A stretch of 11,583 nucleotides of DNA from Candidatus Nanohalobium sp. (GTDB lineage: Archaea; Nanohalarchaeota; Nanosalinia; Nanosalinales; Nanosalinaceae), in the NCBI GenBank assembly GCA_042217555.1, contig JBDGSL010000028.1:1-11583 (forward strand), in the 5' to 3' direction. Shown here in pieces: positions 625 through 11,057 of this stretch. The notes beneath the pieces were generated by a model. That model ran no database searches. It was not told where the DNA came from and worked only from the letters and a program-made list of their open reading frames with translations. A program made the position numbers and the translations under genes. Numbering within the stretch: the first letter of the stretch is position 1; each line of letters begins with the position of its first letter.

Positions 625-683
625 TCTATATATGATTAGTATATTTTTAGGTTTCTTAACTTTTGAACCCGACTTCCCTTATG
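625..683. promoter_or_regulatory. Divergent archaeal promoter region between GIY-YIG (-) and the DUF6884/TGT operon (+)
   Basis: AT-rich ~60 bp spacer. TTCTTAAC at 653-660 reads as a TATA-like box on both strands, about 25-35 nt from each start codon. Confidence 0.4.
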
Positions 684-1148
684 ATGTCAACACTTTTAAT
701 TCAGTCATGCTCTGGCACTAAGAACGATGTTGATGGGTCTGTCCCCGCTATCCAGTTGTATGACGGGTACTTTTTCAGGATTATCAAGAAGGCACAGAGA
801 AATTTCGGCCTAGACAATGGTTTAGATATGTTGATTTTATCAGCCAAACATGGGATCATTGATCCAGAAGAAGAGATTGAGCATTATGACCAAGTTATGG
901 ATGAAGAGAGAGCTAAGGAGCTGAATAAGGAAGTTGTAGAAGCAATAGCCAAACGTGTAGAGAATAAAAACTACAGTAAAATTGTTTGTAATCTAGGTAA
1001 AGACTATCTGAAGGCAGTAGAAGGTCTTGAAAATCATTTAAGTGACGAGCAGGAGCTACATGTCATCGAAGGTAATGGTATCGGAGAGAAAGGTAAGGTA
1101 TTGAAAAAAATAGTAACGGGGTCTTCACTGGATAGTTACGTGAATTAG
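684..1148 (+). CDS. DUF6884 / YaaA-like protein
   Basis: LLIQSCSGTK...PAIQLYDGYFF...ILSAKHGII.PEEEIEHYDQVM...NLGKDY...GIGEK is typical of DUF6884-like proteins. ATG at 684 (or 681) is preferred over the TTG at 663. Confidence 0.7.
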   Translation: MSTLLIQSCSGTKNDVDGSVPAIQLYDGYFFRIIKKAQRNFGLDNGLDMLILSAKHGIIDPEEEIEHYDQVMDEERAKELNKEVVEAIAKRVENKNYSKIVCNLGKDYLKAVEGLENHLSDEQELHVIEGNGIGEKGKVLKKIVTGSSLDSYVN

Positions 1149-1178
1149 GAATAAAAGATCTACGGACACACCCTAGTT

Positions 1179-2405
1179 ATGGGCAAGTTTGAAATCAAGA
1201 GTCAAGCTGGAGACGCACGTATAGGCCATTTACACTTTAATGATACTGATTTAGAAACTCCTCATCTTTTTCCTGTAATCAGTTTCTACGGAGGGGGAAA
1301 TCAAGAAGCACTGTTCGGAGGGGGTTTCCACAGAACAGTCAAGGAGTTTATGGTAAACCATGAGAGGCAAGTAAATGATGGTAAAGATTTCAGTAACTTA
1401 TTTGATGGTTTAATGACTTCTATATCTTCTCTTACCGACTTTAATATTAGCGAGGATAAGCTAGAAGAATACTTAAGTAAAGAGATAAGAGAATGGGAGG
1501 CCTTCCAAGACTTTGAGGGAGTAATATTCCTGGATTCTGGAGGGTTCAAGGTAATGACACAGGGTGCTCTAGAAGGTAGTAACTTTGAGAAAGAAATTGA
1601 CCAAGAAACTGCCTACGAACTTCAAAGAAGAGTTGGGGGAGATATATTGGTCAATCTTGATCGGCCTATTCTACCTGACGACACTTATGAAGACCGCGTT
1701 AAGAAGGCAGATAAAACTCTGGAGAATGCAAAGGAGTTTATTGAAATTTCTGAGGGTTTTAATGGTGCTAGATACCTCACTGTCCATGGCTACGATAAAA
1801 GCATGATGGAGCGGTTTTTCAACCAGGCTGAGGAGAAATTTGACGGGCCTCTAGATAAAATATTTGATGGAATTGCATTAGGTAGTCTGGTTCCTAAGAA
1901 AGATGATTATGGTACGCTAATTGATGCTGTAGGAGGATGTAAGGAAGTTATGCAAGAAAGAGGACTTGAAAATATGCCTTTACACGTATTAGGCATCTCT
2001 AGCAGCGCAATACCTTTACTTGTGCTTCTGGGAGCAGATACTTTTGACTCGGGCACTTATTTCCAAACAGCAATAAATGGTAAGTACATGACTTCATTAA
2101 CAGACCACAAGACTTTGGAGGAAGCTAGAGAACAGAACTTCTCTGAATGCAATTGCCGTGTTTGTTCTGATCCGGACCTAGTTAAGAAAATGCAAGGAGA
2201 GGCCGAGTACCAGAAAGATATTTACGGCCCCGTTGCCATCCATAATATGGAAGTACAAAAGCGAGAAATTGAAGCACTTAAAGATAGTATTAGAGAAGGT
2301 GAGGATGCTCTTAGACTTCATATCGAAAAGACGCTCGGAGAAAAAGACGGCCTTAAGAGATTTGCATATAGAGCAGTAAATAGGTCTTTAGAAGAATACT
2401 TCTAA
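1179..2405 (+). CDS. tgt: tRNA-guanine transglycosylase family protein, divergent paralog (DpdA-like candidate DNA deazaguanine insertase)
   Basis: N-terminal F.I....G.ARIG...ETP..FPV; DSGGF (D119); LDRP (D161); VHG (H203); ALGSLVP; LHVLG; GADTFDS (D290); Zn site C324-x-C326-x2-C329-x25-H355. No PUA domain. Confidence 0.9.
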   Translation: MGKFEIKSQAGDARIGHLHFNDTDLETPHLFPVISFYGGGNQEALFGGGFHRTVKEFMVNHERQVNDGKDFSNLFDGLMTSISSLTDFNISEDKLEEYLSKEIREWEAFQDFEGVIFLDSGGFKVMTQGALEGSNFEKEIDQETAYELQRRVGGDILVNLDRPILPDDTYEDRVKKADKTLENAKEFIEISEGFNGARYLTVHGYDKSMMERFFNQAEEKFDGPLDKIFDGIALGSLVPKKDDYGTLIDAVGGCKEVMQERGLENMPLHVLGISSSAIPLLVLLGADTFDSGTYFQTAINGKYMTSLTDHKTLEEAREQNFSECNCRVCSDPDLVKKMQGEAEYQKDIYGPVAIHNMEVQKREIEALKDSIREGEDALRLHIEKTLGEKDGLKRFAYRAVNRSLEEYF

Positions 2406-2410
2406 GGTGA
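2406..2410 (+). promoter_or_regulatory. Shine-Dalgarno site (GGTGA) for the GHKL ATPase
   Basis: TAA-GGTGA-TAAA-ATG links the TGT stop to the ATG at 2415, consistent with co-transcription. Confidence 0.65.
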
Positions 2411-2414
2411 TAAA

Positions 2415-3956
2415 ATGAAGAGAACTCCACAGGTAAATCAGGTAAATGAATTTTTAGAAATCGCTAGTGACTTTGAAAATCCGCTTGAAATCATTAGAGA
2501 AGCTTTATCTAACTCTTACGACGCAGGAGCTTCTAAAGTAGATATTAAAGTAGTTTCTGAGGAAGATGATGTAATTATAATAAGAGATGACGGAGAAGGA
2601 ATGAGCAAAAAGGATTTAGAATCGTTCTTTGACCTAGGAAATTCATTCAAGGAAAACAGCATTGGTCATAAAGGACATGGAACCAAAATATACTACAAAA
2701 GCGATAAAATCGAAATTGAAACAGTAAAGAAAGATAAGAAGCTGGACGCAGAGATGGAAAAGCCGTGGGAGAAGCTAAACAACAAAGAAATGCCTCAATA
2801 CTCTATCCAAGAGGAACAAAGCGATGAAGATTCATATACCGAGATAAGAATTCATAACTTCAAAGCAGGTCAGGGCTTAAGTGCAGGATCTTTGACTTAC
2901 AACAAAATCCATCACTATATCAAATGGAAGACTATTGGAGGATCTACAGAACATTACTTCGAAGAAAATCCAAGAATTATGGACATTTCTATCGAGCTGG
3001 ATGATAGCATAGATGACAGTAAAGATTCTCTTAAACTGAACAATAAATTTGAATTCCCTCAAGAGAACCGACTACCTCAGAATAAGGAATATCCATCCAA
3101 ACACATGTGCAAAGTTTATCCTCCTAAAGAAATTGAAGTAGATGTTGACGGAGAATCTGTGACTTTGGAAATTGTTGGTATGGTTGGAGGAAAGGAAGCA
3201 AGAAATAAATTGCCAACTTACGGAAGCCATAAATCACAGTTTGGAGTATGGCTAGCTAAAGATCATATCAAAGTAGAGAGAATAAATGATGCAGTTGGTC
3301 ACGATGAAACATACATTCACTTCATGTTCATAGCTAACTGTCAAGAAATAGAGCTTTCTGCAAACAGAGAAAAAGTTAGAAACAAATCCGGCGAAGTTTT
3401 CCAGGAAATAACTGACGAGATCAGCGACTTTATGACTAAGGTAATTGAAGATAGCTGGTATAAGAAATATCTCGAACAGCGAAGAATCGATACAAAGAAA
3501 CAGCGTAATCAGACGCAGTCAAGTTCTCTAAAAGAACGAGAAGACAAGGTACAAAATTTAATAGACCAAAATCGCCGTCCTACTCCGTCTAATACTGTTG
3601 AAACAGTGGCGGAAATCGAAAGATCAAATGCCAAAGGATGGCTGCCTCAAAAGCTGCAAATAGCTGATTTCTCACCCGATGAAGATGTAAACACCATTCT
3701 TCAAAATGGTAGCAAAATCTATCGGGCAGCAGTTTATCCAAAAATGAGCAGTTTCTTCGAACAAGAAAAGGCTCTAAAGCATGTCGAGAAATTTGTCTGC
3801 TGGGAGAAAGGAGATATTGACCAGCTCAGAGAGATAGAGAGAAAGAATTATCTCGGCGATGAAATAGAGTTTAAACTAGATGAAAATAAGATAAGGTATG
3901 TTAATGGAAGTGAAAGAGAAATTGATATATTGGAATTGAGCCAATATATTAACTAA
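2415..3956 (+). CDS. GHKL (HSP90/MutL/MORC-type) ATPase with a putative degenerate nuclease-like C-terminal domain
   Basis: Bergerat motifs REALSNSYDAGA (N-box), IRDDGEGMS (G1) and IGHKGHGTK (G2); S5-like segment with LSANRE; charged helical linker; C-terminal alpha/beta domain containing FVCWE. Confidence 0.85.
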   Translation: MKRTPQVNQVNEFLEIASDFENPLEIIREALSNSYDAGASKVDIKVVSEEDDVIIIRDDGEGMSKKDLESFFDLGNSFKENSIGHKGHGTKIYYKSDKIEIETVKKDKKLDAEMEKPWEKLNNKEMPQYSIQEEQSDEDSYTEIRIHNFKAGQGLSAGSLTYNKIHHYIKWKTIGGSTEHYFEENPRIMDISIELDDSIDDSKDSLKLNNKFEFPQENRLPQNKEYPSKHMCKVYPPKEIEVDVDGESVTLEIVGMVGGKEARNKLPTYGSHKSQFGVWLAKDHIKVERINDAVGHDETYIHFMFIANCQEIELSANREKVRNKSGEVFQEITDEISDFMTKVIEDSWYKKYLEQRRIDTKKQRNQTQSSSLKEREDKVQNLIDQNRRPTPSNTVETVAEIERSNAKGWLPQKLQIADFSPDEDVNTILQNGSKIYRAAVYPKMSSFFEQEKALKHVEKFVCWEKGDIDQLREIERKNYLGDEIEFKLDENKIRYVNGSEREIDILELSQYIN

Positions 3957-3975: not shown

Positions 3976-4395
3976 CTAGTTCAGTTCCTTATCGATAAAA
4001 TCATCGATGCTATCGTGGTTGTTCTCAACAATCTTTGAAATCTCTATATTATGATGAAGTCCTCCCATGGTGACATTTGCAGAACCTATGAGAGCCAGAT
4101 TAGTACATACAATAGCCTTAGCATGTAAATCCTCCATAATCCTGTAAGAATCGTCAGGTACACGCGACAAAAAATAGTCATTGTGTTCTTTCTCACCGAC
4201 AATAAGTTTAACTCCGCCTCTGTTTCTTATTGCTGCCGATAAGCTTTCACTATCATAACCCCTATTGTTATATGGATATTTGACCTTGATATCGCTTATC
4301 CAGGGACTTAAGATGGCAATCTCCTCGCTATTAAGGATTTGATGACCTATAAAATACCCGATTCCGTTAGAAGGAAATGAAAATGCTCTTTCCAT
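3976..4395 (-). CDS. dpdK: Single-domain phospholipase D-family nuclease, DpdK-like
   Basis: ILSPWISD, EHNDYFL, DLHAKAIV...LIGSANVT.GGL..NIE (HxK...GSxN). Overlaps the helicase 3' end by 29 nt, as in the dpdJ-dpdK pairing. Confidence 0.75.
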   Translation of the reverse strand: MERAFSFPSNGIGYFIGHQILNSEEIAILSPWISDIKVKYPYNNRGYDSESLSAAIRNRGGVKLIVGEKEHNDYFLSRVPDDSYRIMEDLHAKAIVCTNLALIGSANVTMGGLHHNIEISKIVENNHDSIDDFIDKELN

Positions 4396-7300
4396 CTAAT
4401 TTACCTGCGCTTAGAGTTTCTTCTTCAATTACTTTTTCCTCTATTTCATCGTCAGAAACTTCCTTTAGGATTTTGTCCATCAATTTTCTCAGGAAGCGAT
4501 AGCTAACCACCTCTTCCTGATCTAGGTTTGATTTACAGTTCGATAGATGGAGATTTGCCATGCAGCCGTCTACATCAGGTGGAATAAGGAGATTTCTAAT
4601 AGCATCAAATCTCCCATCAGGTATATCGCCGAATTCTTCCCTTAGAAATCCTTTAGAGATTTCATTGCCTTGTATTTTCTCTTTGTTAATTTTTCTCTTA
4701 GCTTTCAAGACTTCATCAAGAGATACCTCATCTATTGTCTGATTGACTTCCTGAATGTTTTCATAGGTGTTTAAGGCCTCTTGACTTATTTTTGAGATTA
4801 CTTCAGGATATAGTATCTCTGTTTTTTCCTTTACTTTCTCGTTTAATTCCTCAGTCTCTTCAGATACATCTATATCTATCCATAAGTCTGTGAAATCTTC
4901 ATCAGTCCATATTTTTTCATTTTCTATCTGAGTGTTGTAACCTACGCGAATTGTTGACTTCAAGAGCTTCCCGGGATTGGAGTTGGCCATCTCGTGGAAA
5001 TAATCTGCAATTCCTTGGCCGCCTTCAGATTCCTCAAATACATAAACTATTTTTTTCTCGCTATCATAGCCGTAATGCAGGAGTGATGGATTAACTCCGG
5101 TTACATCAGATATTAGTAGAGTTAAGAAGTGTGCAGTAGTGTGGTATTTTATTCTCTCTAAGGAAACATCTTCTTCTCTGTAGTTTCTGATCATTTCTTC
5201 ATCTAGATTAATTTCATCTATTATATCTCCTATTTTCCAGATAATGACTCTTGTATCATAAGAGATACCAAGTTTAGATCCTTCTACACCGATTTCTACT
5301 TCTTTTTTGTTGTCCCAGTCAGGATGCCACTCTCCACCATAGAACTGGTTGGGAGTAATTTCTAGTTCTACACCATCTAGACTTAATTGAACTGTTAGTG
5401 ATTGAAGGTCAATTCCATCAAAGCCTCCATTAAAGTTCTCGAGTGAAGATGAAACTTTAGGAGAGCCGTGAATTCGTCCCGTGCTGCTTTCGGAGTGTCG
5501 AGGACATTGATCTTCCTTGCCTAGCAAGTGGTAACATTCTGGGCAATAGTCTACAACTCCATTGGCTTTTTCCTGGGTCCTATCAAGTACATCCTTCATA
5601 GGGATGGAATCAGGTATAATTATATCGCCTTTACGAGTTCCATCAATATTAGAAAAGTCAAAAACTACTTCACCAGAATCTTTCTTTTTGGTTTTCGGCT
5701 GGAAGACCTGTAAATAAGGGCCGCTCTGTTTGTATTGTGTGCGGTAAGGAGAGTACTTCCCGAAGATTTTAGTCAGTGGTTCTTCCCAGTTATCGTCATA
5801 TTCGAAATCTGGAACAAAGGTGACATTCTTTCCTCCGCCTCCTCCGAAATAATTCTTTGGAGTGTACCACACCTTCTCTCCGTACCCTTCTCCGGATACT
5901 TGGAGGAATCTGTCATAGAAGTATGCGCTCCTCATCAATCCTTTGAATGCATGAAGACTCCATTTTCTATAGGGTACATCTAAGTAACTATCAAGGTTTT
6001 CAAGCGACTTCTTGAGGTAGTAAACTCTCTTTAGGTCATTACCGTATTCTTCTACTTTATCTGCAGTTAAGTTATCTAGTGTATCAAGCTTATCTTCAAA
6101 TTCTCCCAACTCGCTAAATGCGTTATCAATTTGAAGCTCAACATCGTGGACTTTCTTACCATCTTTGTAAAGTAATTTGTGTTCTAGTTGGCTGATATCT
6201 CCACTTATATGATGCAAGTCTCCTGAAACAGACCTAATAACTCTAAGTCTTTCATCATTAGAATCCTTTTCGCGCTCTAATTCTGATCTCAGGTCCTTCA
6301 GTTTCTGAAGAATCTCTTCTCTATCTTCTTCCATTTCTCGAGCCTCTACAGCCGCATCTACAATATCTTTCGTTAATTCTTCTCCACAGACATCTATCAT
6401 TTTGAGGCCTTTTTCTTCTACATCTTCTAAGAGTTGGCCAAGGGTATCGCTCTGTAGGAGTACATTAGAGTTCTGATCTGTGTATTCTAGAATTTCTTCA
6501 AATTCTTCTTCAATTTCTTCTTCCCGTTCGTCCAAATCTGATAGAAGCCGTTCAATAACATCTTGGCTTAGCAAAGTTCTTGCATCTATTTCTTCATCCA
6601 ATATGTCTCCTATTGCATCTTCAGGATTGTCAAGTAAAGTCCAGAACTCCTCATAATCGAAATTATCATTGAATAATTTCTTCAGAAGCTCTATTTCCTT
6701 AGAGTCTTCAGGTATTGAACCATCCCTATAGATTCTATTACCTTCTTTGTAAAATTGCAGGTTTTTATCGTGAATCCATTTGACGATAGGATTATCGACA
6801 TTAAGAGGGATGTCTACTTCTGAGTCAAGGAATCTATCAGCCCTGTAGAGAAGATTGGAGTCTTGACCATTATTATTTAGAACCATCATGAGGTAAGCTT
6901 CTTCGCCAGGTTGTCTCGCTGCTCTTCCTATTCTTTGAACGAATGAGGCGTAGTTCATTGGTGCGCTGTATTGAGTCACTATACGGATTCCCGGAAGATC
7001 GACACCTACTTCCATGGAGGAGGATGATATGATCATCTCTGCTTCTTCTAAATCACTGGAACTTAGATTAGTTTGTGAGTGATTTGTTTTGATGTCCAAG
7101 GGCTCATCAATGAATTCTTTACCCATCTGAGTTGATATGTCTGGCCAGTCTTCAGTCTCATTCTGGTGGTAACTCCAAAGTCCCTCAGATTCTGCATCTT
7201 CCAATTGTTTTTCTCTCTGATTAATTTGGCTTATACTGTCGATAAAGTTCAAACTGGTGCTTCTATCTCTGCCTTCATCAGAAGGTTCTTGTAACAAACA

Positions 7301-8440
7301 GTGGGAGAGAAGCATTGTTTCCTGAATGTAGGTAGATGCTAATCCCATTTCATCTGCTGACTCAACAAAGAAAAGGTGTTCTTTTTCCTCAGCTTCTTTC
7401 TTATCTTCTTCCTCTACTTCTATAACCTCTGCCGAGTTTTGAGGCAAGTCGAATATTTTCTCTGTAAATGATTCAGCAGCATCTAATGTTGCTGAAGAGC
7501 CTGCCAGAAGTAATGGAGAATCCTTCACGCTCTTTATGTTCTTAATAACGTTTGCAGCGTGAGCACCATAGATGCCCTCATATAAATGAGTCTCGTCGAA
7601 GACTATCGCATCCATGGCCTCTGAAATCCTGTAATTGGGTTTTAAGGTAAATTGTTCCATGGACTCCAGAGTTGTCAAAAGTATGTCCGGAGGACTATTT
7701 TTTATTTCGCCTCTATGTAACTTCAGCTGAGGATATCCGAATTTATGTCCATTAGGGCACTCAATTCCATACCAACCTCTTGAAGAACTTGTTTTCCAGT
7801 CGAAGTTTACTACTTCATCCGAATCGCATATTTCACAATTAGTAAAAGCAAAATTGCCATCTCTCGTTTGATAATCCCAGGAATTGTAGACATCTCTTTT
7901 TCTGTTCTCAATGTCTCCATGCCACATTCCTACTTCTAATTTATGATCATATGTTTCTTCTACTCTATGTATACCTTCTAGTACACGACCTAATTGATCC
8001 TCTAATAAATCTTTTCTCGGATATACCAAAACTACGGTATCCATTTCTTCATCTTCCAGTAGCTTCAAAATAGGACCTAAAAAACCCTCTGTTTTACCAT
8101 ATCCTGTGGGTGCAGAAAGTAGTACTCCTTTCGAGTTGTCAGTGTCTTTGATTTCTTGATGAGCGTTGAAAATTCCGGTCCATGCATCCTCCTGAAAATT
8201 CAGTAATGTATCAAACTCGAAAATTTCCAAAGTATCGAGTATTCTTTGATCATCCCCGGAGTATTCGGTAAAGTCAGGCCTTTCTATATTTTGACCGTGG
8301 TATTTTAGAAATGAGGATACCTTACGCGCCTCCCCTTGATCTTCTTCAGTTATCCTTCTTGCTTGTAGAATTCCATTGATTAGGGGTCTGATATCATTTT
8401 CAAAGCGAGAAAGGTCTGAGTTTGGATGGGCGTGTTTCAC
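4367..8440 (-). CDS. dpdJ: Large SF2 DExH helicase with Zn-finger-like inserts, coiled-coil insertion and DUF1998-like C-terminus, DpdJ-like
   Basis: Q-motif FQ; Walker A APTGYGKT; VYPRKDLLEDQ; DETHLY; SSATL; SSSMEVGVDLP; QRIGRAAR; CEIC..CPNGH and CPEC..CPRH; C-terminal HTTAH...FEESEGGQG...DGC. GTG start. Confidence 0.8.
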   Translation of the reverse strand: MKHAHPNSDLSRFENDIRPLINGILQARRITEEDQGEARKVSSFLKYHGQNIERPDFTEYSGDDQRILDTLEIFEFDTLLNFQEDAWTGIFNAHQEIKDTDNSKGVLLSAPTGYGKTEGFLGPILKLLEDEEMDTVVLVYPRKDLLEDQLGRVLEGIHRVEETYDHKLEVGMWHGDIENRKRDVYNSWDYQTRDGNFAFTNCEICDSDEVVNFDWKTSSSRGWYGIECPNGHKFGYPQLKLHRGEIKNSPPDILLTTLESMEQFTLKPNYRISEAMDAIVFDETHLYEGIYGAHAANVIKNIKSVKDSPLLLAGSSATLDAAESFTEKIFDLPQNSAEVIEVEEEDKKEAEEKEHLFFVESADEMGLASTYIQETMLLSHCLLQEPSDEGRDRSTSLNFIDSISQINQREKQLEDAESEGLWSYHQNETEDWPDISTQMGKEFIDEPLDIKTNHSQTNLSSSDLEEAEMIISSSSMEVGVDLPGIRIVTQYSAPMNYASFVQRIGRAARQPGEEAYLMMVLNNNGQDSNLLYRADRFLDSEVDIPLNVDNPIVKWIHDKNLQFYKEGNRIYRDGSIPEDSKEIELLKKLFNDNFDYEEFWTLLDNPEDAIGDILDEEIDARTLLSQDVIERLLSDLDEREEEIEEEFEEILEYTDQNSNVLLQSDTLGQLLEDVEEKGLKMIDVCGEELTKDIVDAAVEAREMEEDREEILQKLKDLRSELEREKDSNDERLRVIRSVSGDLHHISGDISQLEHKLLYKDGKKVHDVELQIDNAFSELGEFEDKLDTLDNLTADKVEEYGNDLKRVYYLKKSLENLDSYLDVPYRKWSLHAFKGLMRSAYFYDRFLQVSGEGYGEKVWYTPKNYFGGGGGKNVTFVPDFEYDDNWEEPLTKIFGKYSPYRTQYKQSGPYLQVFQPKTKKKDSGEVVFDFSNIDGTRKGDIIIPDSIPMKDVLDRTQEKANGVVDYCPECYHLLGKEDQCPRHSESSTGRIHGSPKVSSSLENFNGGFDGIDLQSLTVQLSLDGVELEITPNQFYGGEWHPDWDNKKEVEIGVEGSKLGISYDTRVIIWKIGDIIDEINLDEEMIRNYREEDVSLERIKYHTTAHFLTLLISDVTGVNPSLLHYGYDSEKKIVYVFEESEGGQGIADYFHEMANSNPGKLLKSTIRVGYNTQIENEKIWTDEDFTDLWIDIDVSEETEELNEKVKEKTEILYPEVISKISQEALNTYENIQEVNQTIDEVSLDEVLKAKRKINKEKIQGNEISKGFLREEFGDIPDGRFDAIRNLLIPPDVDGCMANLHLSNCKSNLDQEEVVSYRFLRKLMDKILKEVSDDEIEEKVIEEETLSAGKLDGKSIFISF

Positions 8441-10132: not shown

Positions 10133-10475
10133 ATGGCTAATCTCAGAGATAATCTTCTGCATGTTCTGGATAACTACGAGTCTGCAAGTTCTGAAGAATT
10201 CGCAGGCCACCCGATAAAGGATGTAATTAAGGAGGATTTGCCCGAGAATATTAATTCAGCTCTTGAAGAGTTTGGAAATCTTGAGGTAAAAGGTTCTGCT
10301 GGAAAGGGCAACTGGACTTCTACTCCATATATTGCTATAATGGACAGCCGAGAGACGAATACTCCGCAGGAAGGAGTTTATGTCGATTACCTTTTCAAAT
10401 ATGATGAAGGGAAGGTCTATCTTGCTATTGATCAAGGTTATACTCAATTGACAGAAGATTATGGTAAAAGAGAAA
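10133..10475 (+). pseudogene. Truncated McrB-like N-terminal DNA-binding domain (DUF3578/MrcB_N)
   Basis: VKGSAGKGNW...PYIAIMD.RET..PQEGVYV.YLF...VYLAIDQG. After ~YGKR the frame becomes Arg-rich and unlike the acidic proteome until the stop at 10627. No AAA+ domain follows. Confidence 0.7.
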
Positions 10476-11057
10476 GCGGAATCCGAGGACTTCAACCTGG
10501 CAACCATCGAGAGCGGATCACAGAGAATCGCTACAATGGAAAGCGAGGAAAAAGAGATTGCAGTATACCACGACAGCTCCGCCAGAGATCTCGACATAGA
10601 GTTCAAGTTCGATCCAGAAGAAGATAGCGATGAACCTTACTGAAGGCCTGAAGAAGTGGAGTTAAAGTCCCGTGAAATTATCAGCGAGTACTTCAACAAG
10701 AAAACCCGAGAAGTTACAGGAAGGCCTGATGTTATACTGGTCGAAATTATCGATAAAGATTTAGAGGACAGAGAATTCTTCATCACCGAGGTCAAAAACT
10801 CCACCAACGAGAAAACCATCAAGAGAGGTATCAAAGAGGCCTTAGAGTACCTTGCGTTTCTCAGAGACGGAGATGATTTCATCTATGAAAGAGAAAATCT
10901 GGGTGGAGAAAAGTCAGGCCTGCTAGTTGTCCAGGATTTCGAAGATGAGAACAGAGGAACTGATTTAGAGGATCAGGAAGGCCCTGTCAGGATTGTTGAG
11001 GCCTCTAAACTTGAAGATGATATAGAAGCTTTAATTGAGGAGAAGATTTCGGTTTAG
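10461..11057 (+). pseudogene. C-terminal fragment of an McrC-like PD-(D/E)xK nuclease, interrupted by an in-frame TGA at 10641-10643
   Basis: ORFs 10461-10643 and 10656-11057 share one frame separated by a single TGA (...DEPY*RPEEVELK...). Motifs GRPDVILVE...ITEVKNS...IKRGIKEALEYL. Confidence 0.65.

Follow-up and report, generated by a model that had tools for sequence, protein, structure and literature searches.

A Dpd-like island of a nanohaloarchaeon with a GHKL ATPase as a candidate substitute for DpdB

Three neighbouring genes on a short contig of a nanohaloarchaeon, referred to as the trio below, encode a DUF6884 protein, a paralog of the TGT-family transglycosylases and a GHKL ATPase, and are considered here as the putative writer of a DNA modification. 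The window, by which we mean the whole stretch of DNA analysed, is a complete contig of 11,583 nt (C21) from a nanohaloarchaeal metagenome-assembled genome (MAG; 1.31 Mb in 88 contigs, 94% complete), and its genes are listed in Table 1. The original prediction, which was made from the sequence of this region, had described three co-directional genes separated by gaps of 30 and 9 nt, with a GGTGA site between the transglycosylase and the ATPase gene. The list of open reading frames (ORFs) and the sequence bear this out: the gaps lie at 1149-1178 (DUF6884-TGT) and 2406-2414 (TGT-GHKL), and the GGTGA is read at 2406-2410. The first ORF extends from 663 to 1148 on the forward strand with in-frame ATGs at 681 and 684; position 684, proposed earlier as the start, is one of these two adjacent codons, and 681 is used here. 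As the earlier description ended at position 3956, it delimited the trio correctly but did not extend to the restriction genes (DpdK-like, DpdJ-like) and those for precursor supply (YhhQ, QueC) on the same contig.

Table 1. Genes and other features of the window (positions in nt).
Feature	Position	Strand	Basis or remark
GIY-YIG nuclease-domain protein, 174 aa	100..624	-	Pfam GIY-YIG E 1.8e-7; divergent from DUF6884 gene
DUF6884 protein, 155 aa; short DpdC/ArcS-C1-like domain	681..1148	+	PF21818 E 1.2e-15
TGT paralog, 408 aa; predicted DpdA-like DNA guanine transglycosylase	1179..2405	+	PF01702 E 5.1e-29
GGTGA, Shine-Dalgarno-like, 4 nt 5' of GHKL ATG (2415)	2406..2410	+	sequence ...TTC TAA GGTGA TAAA ATG...
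GHKL ATPase, 513 aa	2415..3956	+	HATPase_c_3 PF13589 E 1.8e-13
DpdK-like small PLD-family nuclease, 139 aa; convergent with GHKL gene	3976..4395	-	NCBIfam DpdK E 2.5e-13
DpdJ-like (YprA-family) SF2 helicase, 1357 aa; 29-nt overlap with PLD gene	4367..8440	-	NCBIfam DpdJ E 3.6e-53
YhhQ/Vut_1 queuosine-precursor transporter, 240 aa	8721..9443	+	PF02592 E 4.7e-51; TIGR00697 E 8.2e-48, over cut-off
QueC, 7-cyano-7-deazaguanine (preQ0) synthase, 223 aa	9436..10107	+	PF06508 E 3.9e-58
McrB-N-type DNA-binding domain only, 164 aa; system membership uncertain	10133..10627	+	PF12102 MrcB_N E 6.1e-30
ORF of 133 aa; system membership uncertain	10656..11057	+	no family match

To determine how regularly the three genes occur together, relatives of the GHKL protein were collected, and 460 with E <= 0.001 were obtained among 8000 scored candidates. 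The best 120 of these, the window's own protein apart, comprise 507-531 residues with 48-87% identity, and their named sources are, with one exception, Halobacteria or Nanohaloarchaea; the closest named relative stems from a Candidatus Nanohaloarchaea MAG (71% identity). The exception, P0072, with 51% identity and a length of the haloarchaeal type, is labelled Streptomyces sanglieri and lies on a 5-kb contig, a label that probably reflects contamination or mislabelling in the source record. A locus scan with one genome per species yielded 76 loci, of which the 32 archaeal loci L006-L037 encode a GHKL protein of at least 46% identity over the full length; together with the window they make up a set of 33. 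The order DUF6884, TGT, GHKL was kept in all of the 32 further archaeal loci, as determined by tblastn. The 43 other loci are bacterial, with GHKL proteins of 22-50% identity that often match in the ATPase part only, and neither the TGT nor the DUF6884 protein of the window was matched in them. Locus L078 (Haloarcula amylovorans) was left out of the 33 as it contains only fragments of the GHKL gene (residues 3-76 and a C-terminal piece) and gave no TGT or DUF6884 match at E <= 1e-5; it was treated as a decayed copy.

The distance from the TGT stop to the GHKL start ranges from -11 to +9 nt in all 33 loci, and the two genes overlap in 18 of them. The 9-nt gap of the window is the largest in this set, while the haloarchaeal loci overlap or abut; the DUF6884-TGT gap varies from -4 to +43 nt. 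From locus to locus, the pairwise identities of the TGT proteins correlate with those of the GHKL proteins (r = 0.95), a value that fits inheritance as one unit and to which shared descent alone contributes. The distribution was further determined in an even set of 301 Halobacteria genomes: the GHKL clade, the TGT clade and close DUF6884 orthologs (E <= 1.5e-29) occurred in 30 genomes each, and these are the same 30 genomes, with adjacent coordinates. In another 25 Halobacteria genomes only weak matches to the DUF6884 family were obtained (E 1e-10 to 7.5e-6); these lie at other genomic positions, and this TGT is absent. Thus, the possibility considered in the original prediction as a reason to abandon it, namely that close GHKL and DUF6884 homologs mostly occur without a TGT, is true of distant family members only and not of the close clades. 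The arrangement of the trio is far beyond chance, and the trio is one inherited, translationally coupled unit. Among 41 Nanohaloarchaeal genomes it is carried by two, the window's own and G012, whose contig is identical to L006. Two side observations were made on the DUF6884 genes of the 30 genomes. In two of them, an in-frame TGA occurs inside the DUF6884 match, and in G076 another DUF6884-family match, of weak similarity, lies some 330 nt upstream of the trio's DUF6884 gene (C1:2727885-2728202 and 2728530-2728961), which may be a tandem duplication.

The TGT of the window matched the family model TgtA (TIGR00432) with E 1.5e-35 and 122.5 bits, below the cut-off of 350, and the PADLOC model of DpdA within residues 167-301 only (E 5.7e-7); it is predicted to be a TGT-family enzyme outside the bacterial DpdA clade. 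A profile of 30 TGT orthologs matched residues 85-332 of the 582 residues of 1IQ8 (E 3e-30), and the alignment pairs VDSGGF with VDSGSF, GADTFDS with GVDLFDS, and CDCPVCS...HN with CSCPVCS...HN, which represent the catalytic Asp and the zinc site. D119, D290, C324, C326, C329 and H355 of the window's protein are invariant in the 30 orthologs. As the match to 1IQ8 ends at residue 332, the tRNA-binding C1-C3/PUA domains are absent from this TGT.

The similarity to the archaeal tRNA enzyme arcTGT, which is the best family match of the TGT with respect to both TIGR00432 and 1IQ8, raises the question whether the trio acts on tRNA, i.e., as a portable archaeosine-like pathway in which the DUF6884 protein finishes preQ0 as the C1 domain of ArcS does and the GHKL protein serves as a chaperone of RNA or protein. 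The TGT is also the only one in the window's genome, the DUF6884 protein resembles the catalytic domain of ArcS (see below), and 29 of the 33 loci encode a second, ArcS-like TGT paralog of 634-708 aa with TGT and DUF5591 domains (e.g., L007 6313-8217, L012 11613-13634), which is absent from the window, L006 (these two being the nanohaloarchaeal loci), L028 and L029. This paralog carries the motifs DSGG and FD(C/S)S, and its PCSQxKPYSxSRTH corresponds to the full ArcS signature PCX3KPYX2SX2H. However, the tRNA-binding part is missing from the TGT, whose score remains far below that required for TgtA, and no PUA domain was identified by Pfam in the ArcS-like neighbour. In addition, no arcTGT above the cut-off was found in any of the 41 Nanohaloarchaeal genomes, which belong to the same order and of which several are closed and 98-99% complete. 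The lineage therefore lives without tRNA archaeosine, and the TGT of the window is a sporadic, island-borne accessory gene. The contig also has a GC content of 39.3% versus 45.8% for the genome, Dpd-type helicase and nuclease genes adjoin the trio, and seven trio contigs (L012, L018, L019, L021, L026, L028 and L030) are listed as BRIGADE Type I defence loci in Table S1 of a recent preprint (bioRxiv 10.1101/2025.09.15.676423). A role on tRNA is thus rather improbable, and a sporadic island TGT with adjacent restriction genes favours DNA as the substrate.

Any TGT-like match was obtained in only 3 of the 41 Nanohaloarchaeal genomes, the third besides the two trio carriers being G028. Its gene was dropped as a candidate carrier as it encodes a Q-TGT of the bacterial type (PF01702 E 8.8e-133) and its context is unrelated; it is located beside a gene for an HD-domain protein and near one for a Csm6-like HEPN protein (L083 7305-8507, G028:C17), and was probably also acquired.

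The DUF6884 protein was identified by PF21818 with 58.3 bits against a cut-off of 30, and no NCBIfam model matched it. According to the Pfam description, DUF6884 is related to YaaA, has the motifs CxxxK and LSAxxG and contains a probable DNA-binding cleft (PMC11701544). Both motifs are present in the window's protein as CSGTK (C10, S11, K14) and LSAKHG (S54, A55, G58), and these residues are invariant in 24 DUF6884 orthologs. Further models linked the protein to two kinds of enzymes. DUF5591, the family of the ArcS C1 domain, gave E 3.1e-5, just below the cut-off, and by hhalign the CSxxK of DUF6884 was aligned to the PCSQxKPY of the ArcS-like C-domain (E 0.0014, probability 17%). PADLOC PDC-M57A gave E 5e-12, and the PADLOC DpdC models matched weakly (E 1.6e-4 and 1.9e-4), over about 80 of their 312-319 positions. 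DUF6884 is named as the domain of DpdC in a survey of dpd islands (bioRxiv 10.1101/2025.02.24.639861), and DpdC was demonstrated in vitro to convert preQ0-DNA to ADG-DNA independently of DpdA and DpdB (PMC10164549). In the literature searched, DUF6884 is found only in the Pfam paper and the GATOR-GC preprint. We therefore read the DUF6884 protein as a DpdC-like enzyme, the predicted target of which is the nitrile of preQ0 in DNA. This changes the earlier proposal in several respects. As DUF6884 is the domain carried by DpdC, nothing replaces DpdC in the trio; the DUF6884 protein would be a DpdC-like part and not an orphan accessory subunit. Also the expectation that the locus would give DUF6884 a functional context has been overtaken, as the reaction of DpdC is already known by experiment. 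The ArcS-like proteins of the haloarchaeal islands suggest that these may make an archaeosine-like or lysine-adduct base in DNA.

The domain layout of the GHKL protein was derived from conservation and an AlphaFold2 (AF2) model with a mean pLDDT of 91. Bergerat ATPase and transducer-like middle domain extend over residues ~1-345 and are followed by a long helix (347-384) and a C-terminal domain (~394-513; nt 3594-3953). Foldseek identified Hsp90, MORC2/3/4, SMCHD1, GyrB 43K and TopoVI-B as structural matches of the model with E 1e-11 to 7e-14 over some 400 columns, the TM score on the query being 0.43-0.46 for Hsp90, MORC3, MORC2, SMCHD1 and GyrB 43K. ATPases of the Hsp90/MORC/GyrB type dimerise upon ATP binding and clamp a client or DNA. 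In an alignment of 83 GHKL sequences, 78 archaeal-type and 5 distant bacterial, E29, N33, D36, D58, G60, G62, G84, G87, G89 and T90 are invariant throughout, so that motif I (ExxxNxxD), motif II (DxGxG) and motif III (GxxGxG(T)) are complete. Residues 26-305 also matched NF050001 (BbrUII/HgiDII) with E 6.6e-7, at 28.2 bits against a cut-off of 550.

The C-terminal domain has an alpha-beta-beta-beta-alpha-beta core. Foldseek with this domain returned nothing at E <= 0.001, and VIA-align listed restriction-type nucleases at the top (LlaBIII, NucS, SfsA, FokI, BsaWI), with a best Z of only 4.8; the assignment of a nuclease-like fold thus rests mainly on the alignment to bacterial homologs. At the positions where these homologs carry D, E and K, the window's protein has N426, A439 and Y441. 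The same is observed throughout the archaeal-type sequences, in which the D is replaced in 76 of 78 and the E of the ExK in all 78, and the K is kept in a single one, whereas the distant bacterial homologs retain D (5/5), E (5/5) and K (4/5). These substitutions, together with the low structural score and the Foldseek result, make it highly improbable that the GHKL protein still cuts DNA as an ATP-dependent restriction endonuclease, by means of an active site that is unconventional. Such an enzyme would turn the trio into a self-contained restriction-modification unit with TGT and DUF6884 as M and GHKL as R. The core fold and its weak structural neighbours would agree with such an activity, as would the conserved acidic residues of the archaeal C-domain (E396 in 78/78, D418 in 75/78, an acidic residue at 424 in 76/78) and the lack of any other effector within 10 kb in some loci. 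In the most economical history, the ancestor was a GHKL-nuclease from restriction systems that gave up its nuclease chemistry, retained the ATPase and became fixed downstream of a TGT. A chaperone role as in Hsp90 was set aside, as the nearest relatives in sequence are nuclease-bearing proteins from defence contexts.

Bacterial DpdA requires ATP hydrolysis by DpdB (PMC10164549). The original prediction had the GHKL protein replace DpdB and DpdC; while the DpdC half does not hold, the DpdB half is supported by the linkage in 33/33 loci, the occurrence in the same 30/301 genomes and the failure to find DpdB. In the window's genome, no match to the DpdB model NF041060 was detected, a weak negative as this model was silent in all 14 control genomes, and no match to PF14072 (DndB), which did match in one of the controls. 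The two haloarchaeal carrier genomes analysed likewise gave no NF041060 match, with the same reservation as to this model, and PADLOC DpdB did not match among the 20 and 76 representatives of neighbour clusters within 10 kb of the trios. In addition, the effector context of the trio varies. DpdJ-like helicase and PLD nuclease are both present in the window and ten other loci, PglZ-like genes lie beside the trio in L006, L008, L032 and L035, and HerA-like genes also in L006 and L032. As the trio remains constant while the type of restriction changes, the GHKL protein is placed on the modification side. The PglZ-like neighbour region was located at 374-3139 in L008 and L035.

The variable context also bears on whether the GHKL protein could instead be a sensor or coupler of restriction, i.e., a MORC-like clamp that reads the mark and licenses the effector (DpdJ/DpdK-like or PglZ/HerA-like), with the TGT acting alone like phage DpdA. 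Its gene is welded to that of the TGT and to no effector gene, it keeps its place beside the TGT where the effectors differ or are more than 10 kb away, and its presence and absence equal those of the TGT in the 301 genomes. Moreover, a single sensor for unrelated effectors would need very different partner contacts. In favour of a sensor, the distant homologs keep the D...ExK nuclease motif, several of them adjoin restriction or defence genes, the protein is similar to the BbrUII/HgiDII restriction enzymes, GHKL-nuclease fusions such as VcSduA act in defence (PMC12137116), and not all DpdA enzymes need an ATPase. On balance, we consider a sensor function unlikely. With regard to context, the assignment of the GHKL protein as the only candidate ATPase of the transglycosylase module, and as the likely stand-in for DpdB, is well supported.

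Several points weigh against this assignment. The counts cannot be regarded as independent: the set of 33 loci and that of 30 genomes have members in common, and these members, among them many Halorubrum, are related. The silence of NF041060 in the 14 control genomes renders the negatives of this model weak. The TGT reached only 23.8 bits with the DpdA model NF041059 (cut-off 200) and is closer to the tRNA arcTGT. Phage DpdA enzymes, according to what Hutinet and colleagues are said to have reported in 2019, work without DpdB, and an ATPase helper is thus not a logical necessity; also a study of BRC systems describes some DpdA enzymes that need no DpdB (PMC12839542). Finally, the nuclease motif is intact in the distant relatives of the GHKL protein, which stand alone, a TGT being present within 3.5 kb in 0/13 bacterial loci, and several of these 13 loci adjoin genes for type I R subunits, MmeI-like, OLD/UvrD or DUF1156/DUF499 proteins, indicating that the ancestral role of the family was on the restriction side.

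For both proteins of the restriction half, the Dpd models were the best family matches, at scores below the curated thresholds. The DpdJ-like helicase reached 180.7 bits (NCBIfam cut-off 800; PADLOC DpdJ E 5.5e-56) and has full-length matches of 30-35% identity in 13 haloarchaeal loci, including L025, L028 and L030, the contigs of which are among those listed as BRIGADE Type I. The DpdK-like PLD protein reached 49.9 bits (NCBIfam cut-off 100; PADLOC DpdK E 2.5e-13), and homologs were found in 11 of the 33 loci. Helicase and PLD protein are full-length homologs, at 30-42% identity, of those in L025, L028 and L030, the helicase being 35% identical to that of L028 and 34% to that of L030. The layout of the window, in which the trio is followed by PLD and then helicase gene on the opposite strand, is also that of L028 and L029.

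With respect to precursor supply, the genome has one QueC copy above the cut-off, which is the one in the window, and QueD (PF01242) was not found in this genome. In view of the missing QueD and the YhhQ gene on the island, de novo synthesis of preQ0 looks impossible, and preQ0 or its precursor 7-carboxy-7-deazaguanine (CDG) is likely salvaged, presumably from a haloarchaeal host. The Nanohaloarchaeal lineage appears to be without tRNA archaeosine and without de novo synthesis of preQ0.

Among the other genes of the window, those downstream of QueC have no clear place in the system. The McrB-N-type protein is not followed by a GTPase domain, the 133-aa ORF gave no match in Pfam, NCBIfam, PADLOC or PHROGs, and neither protein was matched in the other 32 loci (the former as determined by tblastn); they may be left over from a restriction system that depends on modification, or represent a reader from such a system that now stands alone. 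GIY-YIG homologs with 33-51% identity occur near the trio in 9 of 33 loci and thus are a frequent but not a constant neighbour. A second DUF6884 gene of the same genome (PF21818 E 2.1e-39) is also divergent from a gene with a GIY-YIG domain (E 2.1e-9; L001 609-1520 (-) and 1387-1944 (+), G000:C83), and DUF6884 and GIY-YIG nuclease may recur as a pair by themselves. A GC content as low as that of the window (37-41%) was also observed for about a dozen further short contigs of the bin, and these contigs, the window's included, are consistent with acquired islands or with binning noise. The three trio proteins are acidic (D+E 17-19%). A mis-binned haloarchaeal contig was rejected as an explanation, as the GC content is 39% and the proteins share 71-79% identity with their counterparts in another Nanohaloarchaea MAG and only about 50% with haloarchaeal ones. 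A viral origin was not supported either, since pattern scans of IMG/VR returned no relative of this TGT clade and only three distant GHKL relatives (27-33% identity). A scan for promoters and terminators of the bacterial type, which is unsuited to an archaeon, gave nothing above the shuffled expectation.

Taken together, we consider it reasonably probable that the window is a compact Dpd-like island of the BRIGADE type, in which the trio writes a 7-deazaguanine into the cell's own DNA and the GHKL ATPase likely does the job of DpdB. According to this model, preQ0 or CDG, the latter being the substrate of QueC, would be salvaged via YhhQ, and QueC would carry out the last step. Upon ATP binding, dimers of the GHKL protein would form and clamp or distort the duplex, with its catalytically dead nuclease-like domain as a possible DNA-binding foot, so that a target guanine is exposed to the TGT, which would then swap it for preQ0. 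The invariant Cys and Lys of the CxxxK motif in the DUF6884 protein could subsequently convert the nitrile of the DNA-borne preQ0, the product by analogy with DpdC being the amide dADG, and the helicase-PLD pair would attack DNA that lacks the mark.

A more far-reaching version of this model, which we put forward tentatively and with some doubt, is that a restriction-type GHKL-nuclease has been domesticated: having lost the residues for cutting but not its ATP-driven clamp, it would be the DNA-opening motor of base exchange and take the place of DpdB without homology to it. In that case the trio would be a portable writer that serves at least two unrelated restriction machineries, BRIGADE and BRC, and has moved into the Nanohaloarchaea, where symbionts without QueD and arcTGT would mark their DNA with precursor scavenged from the haloarchaeal host. 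How a transglycosylase of the tRNA type reaches a guanine buried in duplex DNA is an open mechanistic question of the Dpd field. If the domestication model is correct, this would be the first GHKL/MORC-type ATPase to power the swapping of DNA bases. A second, unrelated ATPase at the same operon position would indicate that a DNA-remodelling motor as such is needed, and a clamp of the MORC/GyrB type would offer a motor for study that is structurally better understood. It has also become possible to specify which genes make up the 'biosynthetic cluster' of BRIGADE. Furthermore, the island brings the only TGT and QueC to a lineage otherwise without the pathway, which suggests that genes have flowed in from the host and that the lineage depends on it metabolically.

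One of the closest known systems is Dpd of Salmonella Montevideo (dpdA-K; PMC10164549). As in Dpd, the genes for a TGT-family enzyme, a DpdC-type DUF6884 protein and an ATPase lie together, those for a DpdJ-like helicase and a DpdK-like PLD protein adjoin, and genes of preQ0 metabolism (QueC, YhhQ) are part of the island; the predicted logic, own DNA marked with 7-deazaguanine and unmarked DNA restricted, is also the same. In contrast to Dpd, whose ATPase is the ParB/DndB-like DpdB, the window encodes as its ATPase a GHKL protein of the MORC/Hsp90 type, the nuclease-like domain of which is dead. The TGT is a derivative of arcTGT, the DUF6884 protein comprises 155 aa as compared to the ~312-319 positions of the PADLOC DpdC models, DpdD-I are absent from the window, and every score with a Dpd model remains below the curated equivalog cut-off.

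BRIGADE islands have been described as Dpd-like and as occurring exclusively in halophilic archaea; they contain YprA-family helicases and a cluster predicted to be involved in 7-deazaguanine synthesis, and Type I has a small PLD nuclease as well (bioRxiv 10.1101/2025.09.15.676423 = PMC12458937). The window shares with Type I the halophilic archaeal source, the 7-deazaguanine cluster, the Dpd-like YprA helicase and the small PLD nuclease. It differs in having one helicase instead of two, with no ARMADA-like helicase on the 11.6-kb contig, whose ends may hide more, and in lacking the ArcS-like gene. Based on the layout and on the homology of helicase and PLD protein to those of listed loci, the window is best described as a predicted reduced BRIGADE Type I-like island in a nanohaloarchaeon. 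In the accessible part of Table S1 of the preprint the string 'Nanohaloarchae' has no occurrence, the class being 'Stenosarchaea group' in the rows examined, and its text, supplements apart, contains no occurrence of TGT, GHKL, MORC, HATPase, DpdA, DpdB, DpdC, transglycosylase or ParB.

A likeness to BRC systems (PMC12839542) was observed in L006 (6776-8035 onward) and L032 (12000-21000), where the trio lies beside genes for HerA-like, large (1300-aa) ATPase and PglZ-like proteins; the window differs in carrying the DpdJ/DpdK-like pair and not PglZ/HerA. In the accessible part of the BRC paper, homologs of DpdB and DpdC are stated to be undetected, a STAND NTPase is put forward as the substitute for DpdB, and the word 'GHKL' does not occur. 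In the two BRC-like architectures, however, DpdC-type DUF6884 and GHKL genes flank the TGT, so that the annotation is corrected to include a DpdC-type gene and a candidate ATPase where that part of the paper reports none. As the trio is present in both BRIGADE and BRC-like settings, it behaves like a portable writer, joined in one place to one kind of restriction module and elsewhere to another.

The archaeosine pathway (arcTGT, ArcS; PMC5699537) shares with the trio the arcTGT-type catalytic domain as well as the CX3K signature and weak profile similarity that connect DUF6884 to the ArcS C1 domain (DUF5591), and the haloarchaeal loci add the ArcS-like protein with the full signature. In contrast to this pathway, the window's TGT is without C1-C3/PUA, and the genes are accessory, sporadic, island-borne and coupled to GHKL and restriction genes.

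GHKL proteins as such are familiar from defence: prokaryotic MORC/MutL-like proteins of restriction systems were reportedly described by Iyer et al. in 2008. The Shedu protein VcSduA represents a GHKL-nuclease fusion (PMC12137116), whereas the nuclease residues of the window's protein are lost. Such defence proteins have not been reported in an operon with a base-exchange enzyme, which is where the GHKL gene of the window is located, and a coupling of GHKL and TGT in deazaguanine DNA modification was not found in the literature searched, co-mentions being unrelated. Thus, the type of island is already known from Dpd and from BRIGADE (2025), and what is new here is a reduced Nanohaloarchaeal member and a predicted Dpd-type writer with a non-homologous ATPase.

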